From Cyanobacteriota bacterium (GTDB taxonomy: Bacteria; Cyanobacteriota; Cyanobacteriia; Thermostichales; Thermostichaceae): a stretch of DNA of 25,320 nucleotides. Each line of letters begins with the position of its first letter. Position 1 is the stretch's first letter. A model generated the notes under the pieces. It was not told the DNA's origin. It did not search any database and was given only the letters and a program-made list of their open reading frames with translations. Shown here in pieces: positions 13,899 through 24,322 of the stretch. The position numbers and the translations under genes were made by a program. Where the stretch lies: the NCBI GenBank assembly GCA_033764955.1, contig JANRIL010000003.1, positions 1 through 25,320 on the forward strand. The letters are read 5' to 3'.

Positions 13899-14013
13899 CT
13901 AGTAACACTGCGGATCCAACTGCTCTACTTTCCTTCTTTGCCTAGGAGGGATGGGTTCATCCACAGGGGATAGCATCCTGAGCTGACGTTCAATAACCGT
14001 GGAGACTATCCTT

Positions 14014-14275
14014 GCTGTCTAACCGGCTTTTTGGGAATCTCAGGCGGCGATGCCATGGAGATTACCTCTAGAAAATGGCTGAGCTTTGCCGTCTAAAACA
14101 CTGAATCGGGGTGTTATGGCATAGATCTCGCGGCTAGTATACTTTAGATGGGTATTAAACTGCGCTTGGCTGTCTAATACTTCGTTGGGTATCTTAGACC
14201 CCAAGGATAGCCCACCTCATTGGCAAAATTGCCGAGGTTTGCCGTCTCATAGGCTAAATCGGATGATTAGACTGA
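14014..14275. repeat. Array of four degenerate ~35-bp palindromic units, period 72-81 bp
   Basis: GCYGTCTMA-N16/17-(TTAGAC-like) units start at 14014, 14088, 14169 and 14241. Units 1+2 and 3+4 align as a diverged ~154-bp tandem duplication. Confidence 0.55.
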
Positions 14276-14368
14276 ATTATTCTTGAGTACAACGCCCCCA
14301 CATCTGGTATTGGAGCACGTTTGTCAATCTAAACTGACCTAAACAGAAGAATTAGGCTGCAACTTGCA

Positions 14369-14387
14369 GTTTAATAACTGGTTAGCT
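14369..14387 (+). other. attI-like recombination site, left boundary of the cassette array
   Basis: GTTTAAT-AACTG-GTTAGCT: degenerate inverse core, 5-bp spacer and GTT core. GTTAGCTGGC (14381-14390) is the exact reverse complement of GCCAGCTAAC (16501-16510) at the first attC. Confidence 0.6.
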
Positions 14388-14444
14388 GGCTTTGATTCTG
14401 GGTTGTGACAGTTCTGTCATATCCTTCACTGCATAGGTTCAATG

Positions 14445-15242
14445 CTATTCCTCCGTTTCACTAGCTTGATTAAGGAAAAAGCTAGTCACTATCTGGTTTA
14501 GCAGATCATGAGGATCTGAGTTAGTGCTGGCTGCAATTTGCCTAAGTCTGGAAATGTTATCTGAAGATAGACGGAGTGGAGCAAACCGTTCAGGAAAAGC
14601 CCAACTACATATCTCGCACTCTAATTGACATCCACGACACGATGTACTTTTGAAATTATTGCACTCATCACAAAGGGGTTGCCAATTGCTTAGTTCGTTA
14701 CCTCCGCCTCTAGTGCGCGGGATCTTGTGGTCTTGCTGAAAACGAACTTCTGGCTCAGATCGGTTACATACCGGACATCTATGTTGATAAGTGTCTAGGA
14801 TTCTTAGCCAGTCTAGATCAGAAAGTTTAATTCGTGGCACTCTCTTTTCACTCAAGGATAAGCTCACAAGCTGGTATGTTTTACCTTCTCTACCGATTCC
14901 GGTAATGCCTTCCTCGCCTTGTAATTCTCGCAACCGCCGAAAAACGTCTATATAAGGTTTATAGGGTTGGGTGCCTAAATGCTGATTTCTTCTGAAGCGG
15001 TTAATCGCTTCTCTCAGTTCTTCCTCTTCAACACGCGGACCTGGAATACCATGCCCCGCAGGCCACAGTTCTTCTAAAAGCACTCGATAGTAGGACTTAT
15101 TCGCCTCACTGGGACATACAAATTTTTGACAAACTTCCTCAATCCAGACTTCTCGGTTGATGTTTCCTGGCACTTCCTGCTCACTTACAGGTGCAAGAGG
15201 TAAAAACTTTTGTCGCCCACGGCTTTTCCGCTCGGTTGCCAT
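14445..15242 (-). CDS. HNH endonuclease, putative restriction enzyme
   Basis: CPVC...DHKIP..RGG.N..SNWQPLCDECNNFK HNH motif followed by CRGC..CEIC; divergent from a C5 methyltransferase. Confidence 0.8.
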   Translation of the reverse strand: MATERKSRGRQKFLPLAPVSEQEVPGNINREVWIEEVCQKFVCPSEANKSYYRVLLEELWPAGHGIPGPRVEEEELREAINRFRRNQHLGTQPYKPYIDVFRRLRELQGEEGITGIGREGKTYQLVSLSLSEKRVPRIKLSDLDWLRILDTYQHRCPVCNRSEPEVRFQQDHKIPRTRGGGNELSNWQPLCDECNNFKSTSCRGCQLECEICSWAFPERFAPLRLSSDNISRLRQIAASTNSDPHDLLNQIVTSFFLNQASETEE

Positions 15243-15475
15243 TAGTTATCTCCCCGTAGTAGCCAGATGGGGTCGATATCCAACACCTTGGAGATGGCAT
15301 CAAGTTCATAATCTTTCAGAGATCTGACTTGACGCTCAATCTCTGAGATGTCGGACTGTTCTAGCTTGATTCCATAATCAACATTGAGAGCGGCGGCTAA
15401 TTCAACCTGGTCTAAATTATTTTTCAGCCTTACCTGACGAATTCTTGCTCCACTGATATTTTGCTTGTCTCCCAT
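15242..15475 (-). CDS. XRE-family HTH regulator (controller/C-protein-like)
   Basis: IGARIRQVR-type start and QSDISEIER helix. GAGG RBS before ATG 15475. The stop overlaps the HNH start (TAATG). Confidence 0.82.
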   Translation of the reverse strand: MGDKQNISGARIRQVRLKNNLDQVELAAALNVDYGIKLEQSDISEIERQVRSLKDYELDAISKVLDIDPIWLLRGDN

Positions 15476-15526
15476 AGCTAACACCTCAACCTCATAGTGA
15501 GATGTTATTTAAGAGAGAATTGATTC

Positions 15527-15545
15527 GTAGACGATTTCCGTCTAC
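15527..15545. promoter_or_regulatory. Candidate operator in the divergent controller/MTase promoter region
   Basis: Perfect inverted repeat GTAGACG-ATTTC-CGTCTAC. Confidence 0.4.
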
Positions 15546-15611
15546 AGTAGCTTTTAGGAACTAAATCATTTATGATTAGCCCCATTATCAGACCCTGTAT
15601 CTAGTTTTGAT

Positions 15612-16520
15612 ATGCGTGTCTCCTCCTTCTTCGCTGGCATTGGCGGCTTTGATCTTGGCTTTGAAAGAGCAGGGATGAATGTCGTATTTCAATGTGAAAT
15701 AGATCCTTTTTGCCAACAAATCCTTAAGCGCCACTGGCCACATATCCCCTTACATGAAGACATCACAACCCTCGACCCAACAACTATCCCTCCCTCTGAC
15801 TTGTGGTGTGCCGGATGGCCTTGCCAAGACCTCAGCACTGCCAACACAGATCGCCCAGGACTTGCTGGAAAGCGAAGTGGTCTATTCTTCGCGTTTATGG
15901 ACTTGGTTAGAGAAGTTCATCCAGCGTGGTTGGTCATGGAAAATGTGCCGGGGCTACTCTCCGCAGAGCAAGGAACCGCTCTTGAAACAGTTATCGACAC
16001 GCTCGAAGAGAATGGGTATTTGGGGGGATGGGTATCGTGTAACGCTGTCCATTCGGGCTTACCCCATAATCGAGACAGAGTGTTCTTTGTCGCAAGTTTT
16101 AGATCGGAACGTGCCTATCACTTCTTTACTGACAGTCGCGAATTGTCTGGGGATACTACGTCGAGAGAATCGAGCAAAACGCAAACTAGATCCAATTTTC
16201 GTCAAGGCACTCTCGGAGACAATCCGCTTGTGGTACAACGTCGCGGCGGCTTCGGGTACACCATGGCAAAAAGCATCTGCCCCACGTTACGTGCCCAAAC
16301 TGGAGGACATCAAGGAGGTCATTCAGACAGACCAATACTCTGTGGCGAGAAACTTGACGTGGACAGAGTGGGAGAGGCTTATGGGGTTTCCTCCCGGATG
16401 GACGGTCGTCGAGGGAGACTCCTTGGCAATGCTGTCGTCCCCGCAATTAGCGAATGGATCGGAAGACGAATCTTAGAAATTGAAATGATGTCAGATGCCA
16501 GCCAGCTAACAAGTCGATGA
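15612..16520 (+). CDS. DNA (cytosine-5) methyltransferase, alpha polypeptide (lacks motif IX)
   Basis: Motifs I FAGIGG, IV GWPCQD, VI ENVPG, VIII PHNRDRVF and X LGNAVVP are present; no R.LT..E..RL.GFP in this frame. The stop codon lies inside attC1. Confidence 0.92.
   Translation: MRVSSFFAGIGGFDLGFERAGMNVVFQCEIDPFCQQILKRHWPHIPLHEDITTLDPTTIPPSDLWCAGWPCQDLSTANTDRPGLAGKRSGLFFAFMDLVREVHPAWLVMENVPGLLSAEQGTALETVIDTLEENGYLGGWVSCNAVHSGLPHNRDRVFFVASFRSERAYHFFTDSRELSGDTTSRESSKTQTRSNFRQGTLGDNPLVVQRRGGFGYTMAKSICPTLRAQTGGHQGGHSDRPILCGEKLDVDRVGEAYGVSSRMDGRRGRLLGNAVVPAISEWIGRRILEIEMMSDASQLTSR
15754..16476 (+). CDS. DNA (cytosine-5) methyltransferase beta polypeptide, overprinted in the +1 frame
   Basis: 240-codon open frame inside the alpha gene containing RNLTWTEWERLMGFPPGWT (motif IX) and ECSLSQVLD, which resembles M.EcoHK31I beta as I recall it. 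True start uncertain. Confidence 0.8.
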   Translation: MKTSQPSTQQLSLPLTCGVPDGLAKTSALPTQIAQDLLESEVVYSSRLWTWLEKFIQRGWSWKMCRGYSPQSKEPLLKQLSTRSKRMGIWGDGYRVTLSIRAYPIIETECSLSQVLDRNVPITSLLTVANCLGILRRENRAKRKLDPIFVKALSETIRLWYNVAAASGTPWQKASAPRYVPKLEDIKEVIQTDQYSVARNLTWTEWERLMGFPPGWTVVEGDSLAMLSSPQLANGSEDES

Positions 16521-16589
16521 AGCGGACGGTCGATAGATCTCGGTGAAAAGGCAAAGGTTATCTGCCGCCGCTTATCTTGGTCGTTAGAC
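16504..16589 (+). other. attC site 1 (86 bp)
   Basis: R'' AGCTAAC, then GATGAAGCGGACGG pairing with CCGCCGCTTATC with two extrahelical bases, then R' GTTAGAC. Confidence 0.9.
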
Positions 16590-16753
16590 CTCAATCCCTG
16601 GGCGGGGTAGTAGCTTGGGGGCGATCGGGTATTGTTGTAGTGAAGTCACATTTTCTGTTCCATCGCTCATTGCACTCCAAACTTTACAAAAAACCGACCT
16701 TTTGGTCGGAAGAGAGTGGAGAGGATTTCTGGGATTTAATTAGCTTGAAGCCT

Positions 16754-19600: not shown

Positions 19601-22600
19601 ATGAAATTGATTAAAACTGATTGGGGTATATTTAAAGCAAAGTTCTCAGCAAATCCACAAAATGCTTTTGAGTGGATGTGTTATCTCCTTTTCTGCAATG
19701 AATTCAGCGTGAAAACTGGCATTTTTCGCTATAAAAACCAATCGGCTATGGAAACCAATCCAATTTCCTCAAATGGAGTTAATGTTGGTTGGCAAGCTAA
19801 ATTTTATGACGCCGCATTATCTAGCCATAAAAATGACATACTAGAAACGATTACAAAAGCAAAACGTGATTACCCTGATTTAAATAAAATAATTTTTTAC
19901 ACAAATTCAGAGTGGGGCCAAAACAAAGGAAAGGAACCACAAGGAAAAATAGAAGCAGAAAAAATAGCAAAAACAAACAACCTAGGAATTGAATGGAGAT
20001 GTTGTAGTTTTTTCGAATCACCGTTTGTTGTTGATGAATGTAGCCGGATCACTTCGTACTTCTTTACTCAATCTGATAATTTATTTGGACTTTTGGAGTC
20101 GTTCGAGTCTCATACAGGTGCAATTCTGGACGATATTGAAACTGCTATAACTTTTGGCGACCAAGATGTTTCAATCAATCGCTCTAATATTATATCTGAA
20201 ATTGAAAAGTCAGATGCTAGCGCGTTAATTATAAGTGGCAAAGGCGGCACGGGAAAAACAGCCTTGATAAAAGAGCTGTATGGAGACAAAGGAAAAAATG
20301 ATGCTTTTTATGTCCACAAAGCGACAGAATTTTCTGTTAGTAGCTTGAATGTATTTTTGTCAGGTGTTTTTCTAAAAGATTTTATTGGAGCACATGAAGG
20401 AGCTGACAATAAAACAGTTGTTATTGACTCTGCTGAACACTTGCTTGCTTTGGAAAATACTGATCCTATTAAAGAGTATCTATCCAATTTAATCAAAGCT
20501 GGATGGAGGGTGTGGTTCACCACGAGAAATACCTACCTAAATGATTTAATTTTTCAGCTATATGAAGTATACAAAATTAGCTTTAAGTCGGTGCATCTAG
20601 AAAACCTGAATGAATATACATTATTCGAACTTGCCAAAAAGCATAATTTTGTCATCCCTGTTGACAAAAGGCTCAAAGCGCTCATATTGACTCCATTTTA
20701 TCTTAGGGAGTATTTGAAGCATTACCAAGACAACAAGGGCGCAAGCTACTTTGAATTCAAAGATTTTTTATGGCCAAGAGTCATTGCGAAACGATCCCCG
20801 CAACGAGAACAATTTTTCATACATCTTGCTAAAGAAAGAGCTAATTCAGGAAGGTTTTTCGTTAATCCAGATCATAGCTACTCAAATGAAGCGGTAGAAA
20901 AATCGTTGGTTTCCGATGGAATAATTAGCTATGAGTCTACTCGCGGTTATTTTATTACTCATGATATATATGAAGAATGGGCACTTGATAAATTCGTTGA
21001 GAGTAATTATTTATCCTCAGAAAATGCTGAAATATTTTTTGATAGAATACAACAGTCTTTGCCCATAAGAAGGGTTTTCAGGCGGTGGCTATCAGAGAAA
21101 CTTAGTGCGGCCAATGAAGAAGTTAGCCATCTTATTGTAGAAACCTTGTCGTCTCACAAAGTATCTAATTTGTGGAAGGATGAAGTGCTAGTTTCCATGC
21201 TTCTATCCGACTATTCCGATTATTTTTTTGCCGTTAATAAAAATTTACTATTGGAAGACGATTTCAGACTTCTAAAACGGATATGCTTGTTGATACGAAT
21301 AGGATGCAAAGAGATAGATAATAGTATTTTTGATAGACTTGGAGTGAGAACGCCAGATATTTTATCAATGGAATATATAATAACCAAGCCGAAAGGAAAC
21401 GGGTGGAAATCGCTTATCAAGTTCATCAATGACAATCTCGAAAAGATAGGTGTTAATAATCTCAGTTTTGTATTGCCCGCCCTCTACGACTGGAACAGCC
21501 ACAACAAGTCTGGCGACGCAACTAAATATTCCAGCCTAATTGCATTATCGTTTTACAAATCGGTAATCGAAAACAACGTCTATATTAGGGATGATGGTTT
21601 TTCCAAGGAGTTAATCCTTACCATTTTGTATGGGGCAGGTGAAATTAAAAGTGAACTTGAAGCTATCATTGATGAAATTATTCTAAAAAATTGGAAGCGA
21701 CATAACGATCCATATCATCTAATGAGTGAATTCATTTTAACAAAAATGGAATACTTTAATGTTGCTATTGAAATTCCGAAAAAAGTGATTGCTCTAGCTA
21801 AATGCCTTTGGGTGTATGAACCACCAAAAAACGACAATTATTTTTATGGATCAAGACTAGAGATAGATCATGAATTTGGTGTTGAGAATGGACATCAAGA
21901 CTATTATCCCGCCAGTGCTTATCAAACACCCATATACGCCCTGCTGAAAGCCAATTTAGAATTAACATTAAACTTCATTACCGACCTAATTAATTATGCT
22001 TCAAAAAAATATGCAGAATCCAGCCTTGATAAGGGCCTGGTTGAAACGGCAACACTATTACTAGATGATGGGAAGAAAATTGATCTGCCTATTTCAAACC
22101 GTCTTTGGTGCATGTACCGAGGAACACAGGTAAACCCTGATTTACTTGAATCAATATTAATGTCTCTAGAACGCTTCTTTCTTGAGAGAGGAAAAAATAC
22201 CAAATCTGAAACACTTGAATTTTATCTAAATTATATTCTAACAAGATCTGAATCTTCTGCGCTCGTGGATGTTGTTGCAAGCATAGTATGTGCTTTTCAC
22301 GAGAAAACATTTAATGTAGCCAAAACTCTATTCAGGACAAAAGAATTTTTCTTCTATGACACATCTAGAATGATGTTGGATCAAACACATAAAACTCAAC
22401 TTACTTCGCTCAAAAATTTTAGCATCAACCGGATGAATGAGCTTCATGAGAATGAAAGGATAAGTGCCTGCGATCAAAAACATCGAAAAAAATCACTAGA
22501 AAATATAGCGCTTCAGTATCAGTTTTTCAGGGCAGAAGAAGTGAGCGAAGAAGAATCTGAGAAAAGGCTTCGAGAAATTTGGGATATTTGGGATATTCAC

Positions 22601-24322
22601 TACAAAAACTTACCGGGGAAAGAACTAGAAAATCATCGCGATAAAACTTGGCGTCTATATTTAGCCCGTATGGACAAAAGGAAAATGTCGCTTGAAACCA
22701 AAGAAGTTGAAGATGGCATAACAATTGAATTCAATCCGGAAATTGATCCAGAGCTTAGGGAATATAGTGAAAAGTCTCAGCGAGAAGCGAGCAAGCATTT
22801 TGCACATTCCGGTTTAAAGATTTGGGCCGATAGTAGGCTCTATAATAGAGATGAGTACAAAAAATATGCGTCTTATGAAAATGATCCATTGACTGCTTTG
22901 AGTGAGGCACAAGAAATATGGAATCAACTTTCAGAAGGCAACGTGACGGAGGAATTACAGTTTGATCGAGCTACACCATCGTATGTGTGCGCCGTGCTAT
23001 TGCGAGACTTTAAAGGAAAGTTAGGTAAAACCGAGCTGGAATTTTGCAAGGAAGTCATATTTGAATACGCAAATATTGTTAACAATAATGATTACATGCA
23101 CCAGATCGGCGATGGCTTTGTTCCTGCGTTATTTGTACTCCCAAGATTGATAGATGATTTTCCGGAAGAAAGACTAACTATCAAGTTGCTATTAATCAAA
23201 GCGCTATTGAGGCATGACCCAATAACGATGATGGGAGTGGACAGGATAAATTCAGTAGCCATTCAAGCTGTTCTGCACTTATGGAAGAATAAACCAGATT
23301 TCATGAAGTCGCTGTACATTGGGTATTTGGTAATTGCTCAAAAACATAGAGACGTTCAGGACCGTTTAAGACAAGAGGCATATAAACAGCACAAATATGA
23401 AATTGATAACAATGACTTTGAGCGGGAGTTATTGAAAGAATTAGAGAGTGTAGCAAAGAGTATCGAAGATGAAACCATCACGGAATCCGTAATAGACAAC
23501 ATTGAAAGCATAGATAACGACATATTGATAACTGCTTTTCAGCTTGCACCATTGGATGGCGAACACAATAAAACAGTGCCGTTTGTCGAGGATATTATTA
23601 GAATAATTTCACAGCAATTGCTTTCACCAGACAGAGAAGACCGGCTTAATTATACTCTCAGATATGAATTTTTAAAGCACTATGCCCGTTTTATCCTGCA
23701 TATAGGGAATAGCGAGAAGGACAAATACCTTAAATATTTTACCGATAATTTCACCTTGAGTGAAGGCATGGCAGATTTGTTAAATGAATTTGTTAGCGCT
23801 GAAGACTCATTGAATATACCAGACTCATTTTGGTATGTTTGGAATCGATTTAAAGACCATATCGTTGATTCAATAAATAGCCAAGGTTGGAGGCATGATA
23901 AAGAACGTATAATCGAATCCTTTTTATTTGGAAGAGTCCCTTGGAAGGATGAAGCAATGACATGGCATACATTTTCACCGGAGAATAAAGCATTTTTTGA
24001 TGACCTAAGTGGCAGGATCGGTGGTGAGCCTTCTTTTATTTATAGCATTAGTAAACTCCTTTGTGGCATTGGAAGTGAATTTTTAGATGATGGTATTTAC
24101 TGGATCAGTAACGCAATTAATACTTTTTATATTGATATATCAAAGCATAAATCAGGTAATACTATATTTTATTTGGAGAGATATATGAGAAGGTATTTAT
24201 TCAAAAATCATGACAAAGTTAAACGAACACCAAATTTACGGGCAAAGTCAATGGTGGTTCTGGATTTCCTGGTTGAGCAATATTCAATTACTGGTTATCT
24301 CCTAAGAGAAGATTTAGCCTAG
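19601..24322 (+). CDS. avs4: AVAST type 4 antiviral STAND NTPase/nuclease Avs4
   Basis: N-terminus W..FKAKFS.NPQ..FEW.CYLLFC.EF...GIFRYKNQS..ETNPI...GWQAKFY matches the Avs4 Mrr-like nuclease domain as recalled. Walker A GKGGTGKT, Walker B VVIDSAE, long helical C-terminus, 1573 aa, AT-rich. Confidence 0.88.
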   Translation: MKLIKTDWGIFKAKFSANPQNAFEWMCYLLFCNEFSVKTGIFRYKNQSAMETNPISSNGVNVGWQAKFYDAALSSHKNDILETITKAKRDYPDLNKIIFYTNSEWGQNKGKEPQGKIEAEKIAKTNNLGIEWRCCSFFESPFVVDECSRITSYFFTQSDNLFGLLESFESHTGAILDDIETAITFGDQDVSINRSNIISEIEKSDASALIISGKGGTGKTALIKELYGDKGKNDAFYVHKATEFSVSSLNVFLSGVFLKDFIGAHEGADNKTVVIDSAEHLLALENTDPIKEYLSNLIKAGWRVWFTTRNTYLNDLIFQLYEVYKISFKSVHLENLNEYTLFELAKKHNFVIPVDKRLKALILTPFYLREYLKHYQDNKGASYFEFKDFLWPRVIAKRSPQREQFFIHLAKERANSGRFFVNPDHSYSNEAVEKSLVSDGIISYESTRGYFITHDIYEEWALDKFVESNYLSSENAEIFFDRIQQSLPIRRVFRRWLSEKLSAANEEVSHLIVETLSSHKVSNLWKDEVLVSMLLSDYSDYFFAVNKNLLLEDDFRLLKRICLLIRIGCKEIDNSIFDRLGVRTPDILSMEYIITKPKGNGWKSLIKFINDNLEKIGVNNLSFVLPALYDWNSHNKSGDATKYSSLIALSFYKSVIENNVYIRDDGFSKELILTILYGAGEIKSELEAIIDEIILKNWKRHNDPYHLMSEFILTKMEYFNVAIEIPKKVIALAKCLWVYEPPKNDNYFYGSRLEIDHEFGVENGHQDYYPASAYQTPIYALLKANLELTLNFITDLINYASKKYAESSLDKGLVETATLLLDDGKKIDLPISNRLWCMYRGTQVNPDLLESILMSLERFFLERGKNTKSETLEFYLNYILTRSESSALVDVVASIVCAFHEKTFNVAKTLFRTKEFFFYDTSRMMLDQTHKTQLTSLKNFSINRMNELHENERISACDQKHRKKSLENIALQYQFFRAEEVSEEESEKRLREIWDIWDIHYKNLPGKELENHRDKTWRLYLARMDKRKMSLETKEVEDGITIEFNPEIDPELREYSEKSQREASKHFAHSGLKIWADSRLYNRDEYKKYASYENDPLTALSEAQEIWNQLSEGNVTEELQFDRATPSYVCAVLLRDFKGKLGKTELEFCKEVIFEYANIVNNNDYMHQIGDGFVPALFVLPRLIDDFPEERLTIKLLLIKALLRHDPITMMGVDRINSVAIQAVLHLWKNKPDFMKSLYIGYLVIAQKHRDVQDRLRQEAYKQHKYEIDNNDFERELLKELESVAKSIEDETITESVIDNIESIDNDILITAFQLAPLDGEHNKTVPFVEDIIRIISQQLLSPDREDRLNYTLRYEFLKHYARFILHIGNSEKDKYLKYFTDNFTLSEGMADLLNEFVSAEDSLNIPDSFWYVWNRFKDHIVDSINSQGWRHDKERIIESFLFGRVPWKDEAMTWHTFSPENKAFFDDLSGRIGGEPSFIYSISKLLCGIGSEFLDDGIYWISNAINTFYIDISKHKSGNTIFYLERYMRRYLFKNHDKVKRTPNLRAKSMVVLDFLVEQYSITGYLLREDLA

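Follow-up and report, generated by a model that had tools for sequence, protein, structure and literature searches.

A Two-Frame Gene Pair of M.EcoHK31I Type, Conserved and Not Annotated, in a Thermostichaceae Cyanobacterium

Gene Layout and Sequence Motifs

The DNA analyzed here, termed the window, is a 25,320-nucleotide forward-strand stretch of contig JANRIL010000003.1 (assembly GCA_033764955.1) from a Cyanobacteriota bacterium (Thermostichaceae), and the element in question is a cytosine-5 (C5) DNA methyltransferase gene, alpha, within which a second gene, beta, is read in the +1 frame (Table 1). From stop to stop the +1 frame is open at 15703..16476 (257 codons), and 723 of the 909 bases of alpha are read twice. 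An initial annotation, made from the sequence alone, had described a 302-amino-acid (aa) open reading frame (ORF) with motifs I, IV, VI, VIII and X and without motif IX, and a 240-codon +1 ORF at 15754-16476 inside it that carries motif IX. The former was borne out by the ORF listing and the motif coordinates, and the latter was recovered at exactly those positions. The segments that we take to be motifs I, IV, VI, VIII, IX and X were named from the consensus of each motif, not by a tool. Across the position of motif IX the alpha frame reads GEKLDVDRVGEAYGVSSRMDG, and the large chain contains no motif IX. The Pfam family PF00145 matched alpha at residues 1-175 (profile positions 1-169 of 324; E 3.3e-47; 161.9 bits, the cut-off being 22), and the Pfam and TIGR00675 matches were confined to residues 1-177. 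Pfam and NCBIfam scans of the beta protein matched no family, and the PHROGs scan returned a single weak match (E 8.9e-4).

Table 1. Features of the two-frame gene, its neighbors and the surrounding unit (positions in the window).
Feature	Position	Strand	Basis and remarks
Alpha gene, 302 aa	15612..16520	+	ORF listing; motifs I-VIII, Thr-Leu loop segment and X, without IX
Beta gene, 240 aa from ATG	15754..16476	+	ORF listing; +1 frame, entirely within alpha
Alpha motif I, FAGIGG	15630-15647	+	Motif consensus
Alpha motif IV, PCQDLS	15819-15836	+	Motif consensus
Alpha motif VI, ENVPG	15939-15953	+	Motif consensus
Alpha motif VIII, HNRDRVFFV	16065-16091	+	Motif consensus
Alpha motif X, GNAVVP	16425-16442	+	Motif consensus
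Beta motif IX, RNLTWTEWERLMGFPPGWT	16348-16404	+	+1 frame, immediately 5' of X (GNAVVP); motif consensus
Beta leader, beta residues 1-109	15754..16080	+	+1 reading of alpha motifs IV-VIII; kept open, weakly conserved
Beta helical module, beta residues 110-158, CSLSQVLD ... LGILRRENRAKRKLDPIFVKALSE	16081..16226	+	Downstream of motif VIII; alpha here a mere spacer
Alpha Thr-Leu segment, GGFGYT ... CPTLRAQTGGHQGG	16227..16346	+	Variable region; alpha is the selected frame
Beta motif IX segment	16347..16421	+	Beta is the selected frame
Alpha motif X helix and C-terminus	16422..16520	+	Alpha is the selected frame; beta tail stops at 16476
G6 run	16022..16027	+	Dictated by the two frames together (L-G-G in alpha, W-G-D in beta)
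Controller (C) protein gene, 80 aa, helix-turn-helix	15242..15484	-	Pfam HTH_3, E 6.8e-7
HNH nuclease gene, 265 aa, probable restriction endonuclease	14445..15242	-	Pfam HNH_5 and HNH
Palindrome GTAGACG-N5-CGTCTAC, probable C-box operator	15527..15545		Between the C gene and alpha
Candidate cassette, 2.2 kb, with nuclease, C-protein and alpha/beta genes	14382..16583		Flank similarity, core sites
attC-like site	16504..16589		Inverse core AGCTAAC 16504-16510; core GTTAGAC 16583-16589

Conservation of Both Reading Frames

A protein search with alpha retrieved more than 120 relatives of 271-338 aa with identities of 69-96%, and those that were named were called solely 'DNA (cytosine-5-)-methyltransferase'. 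The genome scan located 78 related loci, mostly cyanobacterial, with a few labelled Pseudomonadota, Burkholderiales, Archangium and others. Candidate cultured carriers among them are Chlorogloea sp. CCALA 695, Lusitaniella coriacea LEGE 07167, Calothrix sp. PCC 7103, Rivularia sp. UHCC 0363 and Tychonema bourrellyi FEM_GT703. Eight loci were left out as partial or truncated (L064, L065, L070, L073-L076 and L078), and a locus with a frame fusion (L069) was treated apart, as were L071 and L072 from Providencia and Proteus, which are 40% identical. The comparison set thus consisted of 67 loci and the window, i.e., 68 genes, and the non-redundant set of 45 genes mutually less than 95% identical; expected numbers of stops were obtained from synonymous-codon shuffles.

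The +1 frame was found to be free of stops over alpha codons 39-286 in 65 of the 68 genes, the exceptions being L066, L067 and L068, and stops were common within codons 1-38. In the non-redundant set, 5 stops were counted over alpha codons 41-285 against 282 expected, and upstream of beta, over codons 1-38, there were 107 against 103 expected, i.e., no avoidance. The +2 frame of the same genes contained 12 stops on average. When the +1 stops were counted by segment (own codons), 1, 0, 0, 0 and 0 were observed at codons 49-110, 111-165, 166-205, 206-245 and 246-270, with 86, 78, 20, 29 and 37 expected, respectively. Stop avoidance is therefore present in every sub-interval, including the beta leader, and the nested +1 frame lies far beyond chance. 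The ATG of beta, at alpha codon 48, was present in 62 of the 68 genes, and this codon was NAT in 42 of the 45 non-redundant genes compared with 343 of 521 other His/Tyr codons. Beta was exactly 240 aa long in 53 of the 68 genes and 236-244 aa in 65. The initial annotation had proposed a check of whether both frames stay open in homologues, which is answered by these 65 genes, and had called the dual-coding pair rare, a view that does not hold, the layout being kept in 67 related loci.

Selection Along the Two Frames

Single-base differences were divided into those synonymous in alpha and changing beta and those changing alpha and synonymous in beta, and the ratio of the first class to the second was calculated along the gene. 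The ratio was 66 at alpha codons 1-47, where alpha alone is encoded, 4.2 at codons 48-125 (motifs IV-VI), with amino acid identities of 0.77 for alpha and 0.59 for beta, and 1.1 at codons 126-165 (motifs VII-VIII), a value that reflects constraint on both frames. Over the beta module (codons 166-205) it was 0.04 (337 against 8660 differences), with identities of 0.84 for beta and 0.53 for alpha, and over the GGFGYT...PTLRAQ segment (codons 206-245) it was 5.8 (5096 against 882), with an alpha identity of 0.93. The ratio was again low at codons 246-270, which hold motif IX of beta (0.10; 388 against 3849; identity 0.91 for beta and 0.76 for alpha), and was 5.4 (3466 against 642) at codons 271-287, which hold motif X of alpha. 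The codon-position diversity profile gave the same picture, with alpha codon position 1 being the most variable across the beta module.

Since the selection ratios and the amino acid identities alternate by segment, the two chains are interleaved, each being spacer where the other is functional. Moreover, beta contributes more than motif IX, because it is also selected over the helical module, and the strongest selection falls on this module of approximately 50 residues located 5' of IX. The initial annotation was correct in placing motif IX in beta; what did not stand was that IX alone is supplied.

Structure Models and Fold Searches

The AlphaFold2 (AF2) model of alpha, built with 40 sequences, was confident at residues 1-174 and 273-300, including a confident helix at 277-301, with predicted local distance difference test (pLDDT) values below 50 at 175-272. 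Its best match was M.HhaI (Z 21.7, root-mean-square deviation 3.0 A, 206 residues aligned), with model residues 1..298 aligned onto chain residues 12..327, up to the C-terminus of M.HhaI. The AF2 model of beta, built with 46 aligned sequences, showed pLDDT values below 50 over nearly all of residues 1-110 (1-11, 15-75 and 86-110) and values of 73-94 at residues 111-210, which were mostly helical; modelled alone, beta was confident solely at 111-219. The confidence of the two models is thus complementary, each chain being confident mainly where the other is not. Alpha models as a large domain with the motif X helix, and beta 111-219 models as an autonomous folded piece.

The beta model had no fold match with Z of at least 5 among 48,161 Protein Data Bank (PDB) representatives, a result that does not show a new fold, and phmmer found no match of beta to PDB sequences at E up to 10. 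A beta profile matched exclusively C5 methyltransferases among PDB sequences, in and around motif IX, with weak E values of 0.06-1.7. The same search aligned the start of the beta module with the in-frame TLAQLLDP..KYILTP of Shigella Dcm, a negligible alignment of 0.2 bits that is a hint only.

Homologues of the M.EcoHK31I Type

M.EcoHK31I (E. coli HK31, YGGCCR), a C5 methyltransferase made of an alpha and a beta chain, was reported by Lee, Kam and Shaw in 1995, and the following details are taken from two papers (PMC2836561, PMC3404938). Both chains are required for activity, and beta lies within alpha in a different frame (PMC2836561). Activity persisted until the beta start codon plus Met 17 and Met 26 had been removed, and N-terminal truncation of beta weakens the association (PMC2836561). 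Judging by the plasmid names, M38 and C23, the chains would be of 38 and 23 kDa (PMC2836561). Beta is described as one that 'contains only one conserved motif (motif IX)' (PMC2836561), and the recognition domain is placed in alpha (PMC3404938).

When the Providencia gene was used as a DNA query, a homologue was found in 81 of 5426 complete E. coli genomes. The locus of E. coli S43 (L247) has an annotated alpha of 309 aa and an unannotated +1 ORF of 176 aa with Met at positions 1, 17 and 26. These lengths agree with those of the M.EcoHK31I chains, 309 and 176 aa. The S43 locus was therefore taken as being of the M.EcoHK31I type; it is a stand-in that fits the printed details of beta and not the deposited M.EcoHK31I sequence. 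The alpha of the window was found to be 40% identical to S43 alpha (E 2e-70), and the beta of the window 27% identical to S43 beta over 124 residues (E 2e-12), the alignment spanning the module and motif IX. In the E. coli M.EcoHK31I-like loci, only the alpha gene and a convergent gene for a 315-aa 'hypothetical protein' were annotated, and the S43 locus is surrounded by insertion sequence (IS) elements and integrase fragments. That standard annotation overlooks beta, as had been anticipated, is true of the cyanobacterial and the RefSeq E. coli records. The initial annotation had also credited M.EaeI with the overprinted design, and no paper saying so was found among those searched.

The Nested Module in Phage Methylases and Other Variants

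A search with beta against 1.84 billion representatives retrieved 184 proteins at E up to 1e-3, the closer of which were named, if at all, 'hypothetical protein'. Phage loci were picked by main-frame alignment, blind to the +1 frame, and 80 of them were fetched (L159-L238, IMG/VR viral contigs). A single ORF runs from motif IV to motif IX in 65 of the 80, and every one of these 65 has a +1 ORF of 152-228 codons across motif VIII. In the 65 loci, 11 stops were counted in the +1 frame of the nested interval against 247 expected, with 189 against 144 in the upstream flank and 185 against 171 in the downstream flank. For the 59 non-redundant phage loci, selection on the module was found to act in the +1 frame, with a ratio of 0.18 and an identity of 0.54 compared with 0.32, and outside the module the main frame dominates selection. 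The start of the nested ORF precedes motif IV by 11-72 codons, 18 being the commonest distance. The module also occurs in the +1 frame of the annotated methylase genes of Caulobacter phage DMCA (L248) and Pseudanabaena phage Pan4 (L249), and no nested gene is present in the annotation of either phage.

As in the window, the phage genes with a 'CSGIEA'-type motif I keep a nested +1 ORF with the module at a fixed offset after motif VIII. Unlike in the window, motif IX of the phage genes is in the main frame, where all ten motifs are found, and the nested ORF stops soon after the module. A variant layout was observed in the viral locus L117 and in P0149, P0157, P0177 and P0216, distant relatives among the proteins retrieved with beta, with motifs I-III in frame with a beta-like module and motif IX, and with motifs IV-VIII, the Thr-Leu part and motif X in the other frame; no ATG was seen before motif IV in these variants. 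This layout could mean that the enzyme is divided in another way or that the gene depends on frameshifting.

A broader reading, which we regard as evenly balanced between right and wrong, is that an entire clade of C5 methyltransferase genes, from bacteria and phages alike, carries a hidden second gene, with the module of about 50 residues opposite the spacer after motif VIII as its core, and that this includes enzymes annotated as single chains with ten motifs, so that all of them would be two-chain enzymes. The EcoHK31I and cyanobacterial type would then be derived, motif IX having also moved to the second frame and the chains having become mutually dependent and interleaved, and P0216 and L117 would be a further re-partition.

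Proposed Enzyme and Alternative Explanations

Both frames were shown to be open and conserved, with selection alternating between them, and both are homologous to the M.EcoHK31I-like locus of E. coli. The two-frame gene pair is real, conserved and absent from annotation, and it belongs to the M.EcoHK31I kind; the alpha/beta design put forward in the initial annotation is thus supported by conservation, by alternating selection, by the two-frame homology and by the exclusion of indels described below. It is very probable that 15612-16520 encodes two polypeptides that jointly form one DNA C5 methyltransferase of a C-protein-controlled Type II restriction-modification system. In this enzyme, alpha (frame 0) would provide the large domain for S-adenosylmethionine binding and catalysis (motifs I-VIII), the Thr-Leu loop of the variable region and the motif X helix. 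Beta, translated most likely from the ATG at 15754, would provide a long, probably disordered leader, the helical module after motif VIII, and motif IX. Because the functional pieces of alpha and beta would alternate along the DNA, the small DNA-recognition domain would be shared between the chains, being assembled from beta residues 111-219 and the alpha loop at residues 206-245 and docked onto the large domain of alpha. We infer that the two chains bind each other, that alpha without beta would be inactive, and that the helical module has the role given here.

Several observations weigh against this assignment or parts of it. Three proteobacterial relatives depart from the pattern: in L066 and L067 the ATG at codon 48 is missing or is soon followed by a stop, and in L066-L068 beta ends earlier. 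Upstream of the beta ATG of the window, there is no Shine-Dalgarno-like sequence. The beta leader is weakly conserved and predicted to be disordered, so the real start of beta could lie further downstream than 15754. Four sequencing runs, three of RNA libraries from two studies and one of DNA, have contigs that cover the gene, but the RNA-library contigs give no information on starts, strand, level or translation and may include carried-over DNA. Alpha residues 206-245 are strongly conserved, yet were modelled with low confidence when alpha was folded alone. Finally, YGGCCR is not specifically avoided in the genome of the window, where observed/expected values were 0.05 for CGGCCG, 0.57 for TGGCCA and 1.34 for CGGCCA/TGGCCG, and many other palindromic hexamers are equally avoided.

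Among the alternatives, it is quite unlikely that beta is translated and yet is no subunit of the methyltransferase, but, e.g., a regulator or an anti-restriction factor that shares its DNA. Such a product would suit a helical module with no PDB fold match above Z 5 and no Pfam or NCBIfam family, and the phage genes that keep the module in +1 and IX in the main frame indicate that the module can exist apart from IX. Nevertheless, the sole copy of motif IX is in beta, alpha having none, and the homologous E. coli-type enzyme needs beta for methylation (PMC2836561).

It is highly improbable that a single polypeptide is made by programmed ribosomal frameshifting, with ribosomes changing from frame 0 to +1 or back wherever selection switches, so as to yield one canonical methyltransferase chain. 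The selected segments, taken in order, do give the usual motif order of VIII, start of the variable region, Thr-Leu, IX and X, and the G6 run at alpha codons 137-139 is kept in 44 of the 45 non-redundant genes; this conservation is also explained by the residues that both frames need there. However, four shifts would be needed, no in-register X XXY YYZ heptamer is conserved at any switch point, and frameshifting does not require a +1 frame open from codon 39, more than 120 codons ahead of the first switch. A conserved ATG stands at the head of the +1 ORF. In addition, the beta of M.EcoHK31I is independently initiated (PMC2836561).

An artefact or pseudogene, in which two compensating indels from assembly error or decay have altered an ordinary single-chain methylase gene, has a negligible probability: L069 (coverage 2.7 by contig title) does have the N-terminal half of alpha fused to the C-terminal half of beta at the G6 run, but this explanation is excluded by the identical frame layout of 67 independent assemblies, by purifying selection in both frames, and by the four sequencing runs, none of which contains an indel inside the gene of the kind that the initial annotation had envisaged.

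Restriction-Modification Neighbors

The C-protein gene adjoins the methylase gene in 56 of the 78 loci, and the HNH gene accompanies it in 62 of the 78. A pattern search detected the palindrome upstream of alpha in 53 of 70 loci, and several of those that it missed were off by one letter. Its 5-base spacer alternates among L001-L077 between ATTTT/ATTTC and AAAAT, as if the center had been flipped. In C-protein-controlled Type II systems, a small helix-turn-helix gene lies upstream of and overlaps the nuclease gene, divergent from the methylase gene, with an intergenic palindrome. By analogy, the layout of the window would be that of such a restriction-modification system, with the palindrome as a putative C-protein site, and it differs from the known systems of this kind in that the methylase is two-chain. 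The remainder of the 25-kb contig holds housekeeping genes (dnaK, dnaJ, grpE, rsgA, chorismate synthase and lpxD), and a 1573-aa ORF at 19601-24322 had no Pfam match at E up to 1e-5.

The Putative Integron-Type Cassette

The similarity of the window to its nine closest loci (L001-L009) begins at 14364-14381 and ends at 16558-16590, with ends at 16585-16590 in eight of the nine. The sequence GTTAGCT occurs at 14381, and AGCTAAC at 16504 is its exact complement, the first six letters of the cassette being complementary to the inverse core of the attC-like site. In eight of ten close relatives the 3' tail is common as far as G↓TT(A/C), beyond which the sequences diverge; in L006 and L063 the divergence sets in sooner. 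In other runs, several contigs share just 16501-16607, one DNA contig ends at 16587, and another starts at 16583. Boundaries at G↓TTRRRY cores, together with a 3' attC-like site, were thus found on the unit 14382-16583, which fits an integron-type cassette, and the cyanobacterial integron cassette proposed in the initial annotation gains support from this boundary evidence of core sites and divergence points.

Two intact integron integrase genes scoring above the TIGR02249 cut-off were detected in the genome on contigs other than that of the window, namely C9 (19-960) and C38 (63588-64529). One intact integron integrase gene lies at the very edge of its contig, and a third copy, on C36 (180-860), is broken by two TAG stops. 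The spacer to the left of the cassette (13950-14380) contains direct and inverted repeats with GTCTAA / TTAGAC cores, including a 38-nt repeat at 14072 and 14225 and inverted pairs at 14006/14194 and 14153/14346, and these repeats may be further attC-like sites without genes. Contig C7 holds a stretch with 90% identity to part of this spacer (13954-14181). A BLAST search for attC repeats, with the cassette flanks as query against the genome of the window, gave just four matches, which were short or unrelated.

Significance

The two-frame design has been proven so far for one E. coli enzyme, and it is kept here in dozens of genomes. Beyond the papers cited, the present analysis adds the segment-by-segment interleaving of the chains and a conserved beta module whose nested form recurs in single-frame phage methylases, which suggests that the design is general. 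In a literature search at the level of listings and abstracts, no paper was found to deal with cyanobacterial members, with the beta module or with nested ORFs of single-frame methylases. In bacteria, long overlaps of genes on the same strand are rare and their reality is disputed, and this case is among the clearest natural ones, with selection switching five times between the frames; methods for detecting overlaps could accordingly be tested well on this gene family. Annotation pipelines call alpha alone, as a 'DNA cytosine methyltransferase', and genes cloned as annotated may be inactive or altered. The move of part of the recognition region into beta is also relevant where M.EcoHK31I serves as a split platform for targeted methylation.

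Comparison with Known Systems

M.AquI (Agmenellum quadruplicatum, CYCGRG) is a two-subunit C5 methyltransferase of a cyanobacterium (PMC3404938), and it resembles the enzyme of the window as a cyanobacterial C5 methylase whose two polypeptides divide the variable region. It differs in being split end to end, with motifs I-VIII and half of the variable region followed by the other half and motifs IX-X, so that its chains are neither nested nor interleaved.

The closest likeness is to M.EcoHK31I, which has the same arrangement of an alpha carrying motifs I-VIII plus X and a beta carrying motif IX that lies wholly inside alpha in another frame. The M.EcoHK31I-type S43 locus also has the same helical module 5' of IX. 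Unlike S43 beta, which starts between motifs IV and VI, the beta of the window is 240 aa long and starts before motif IV. The nuclease partners differ as well, the window having a divergent 265-aa HNH protein and a C protein, whereas E. coli has a convergent 315-aa protein and no annotated C gene. In contrast to M.EcoHK31I, the host of the window is a cyanobacterium, and the genes apparently lie in an integron-type cassette. Finally, whereas the two M.EcoHK31I papers assign the recognition domain to alpha and no more than motif IX to beta, the selection data of the window place part of the variable region in beta.

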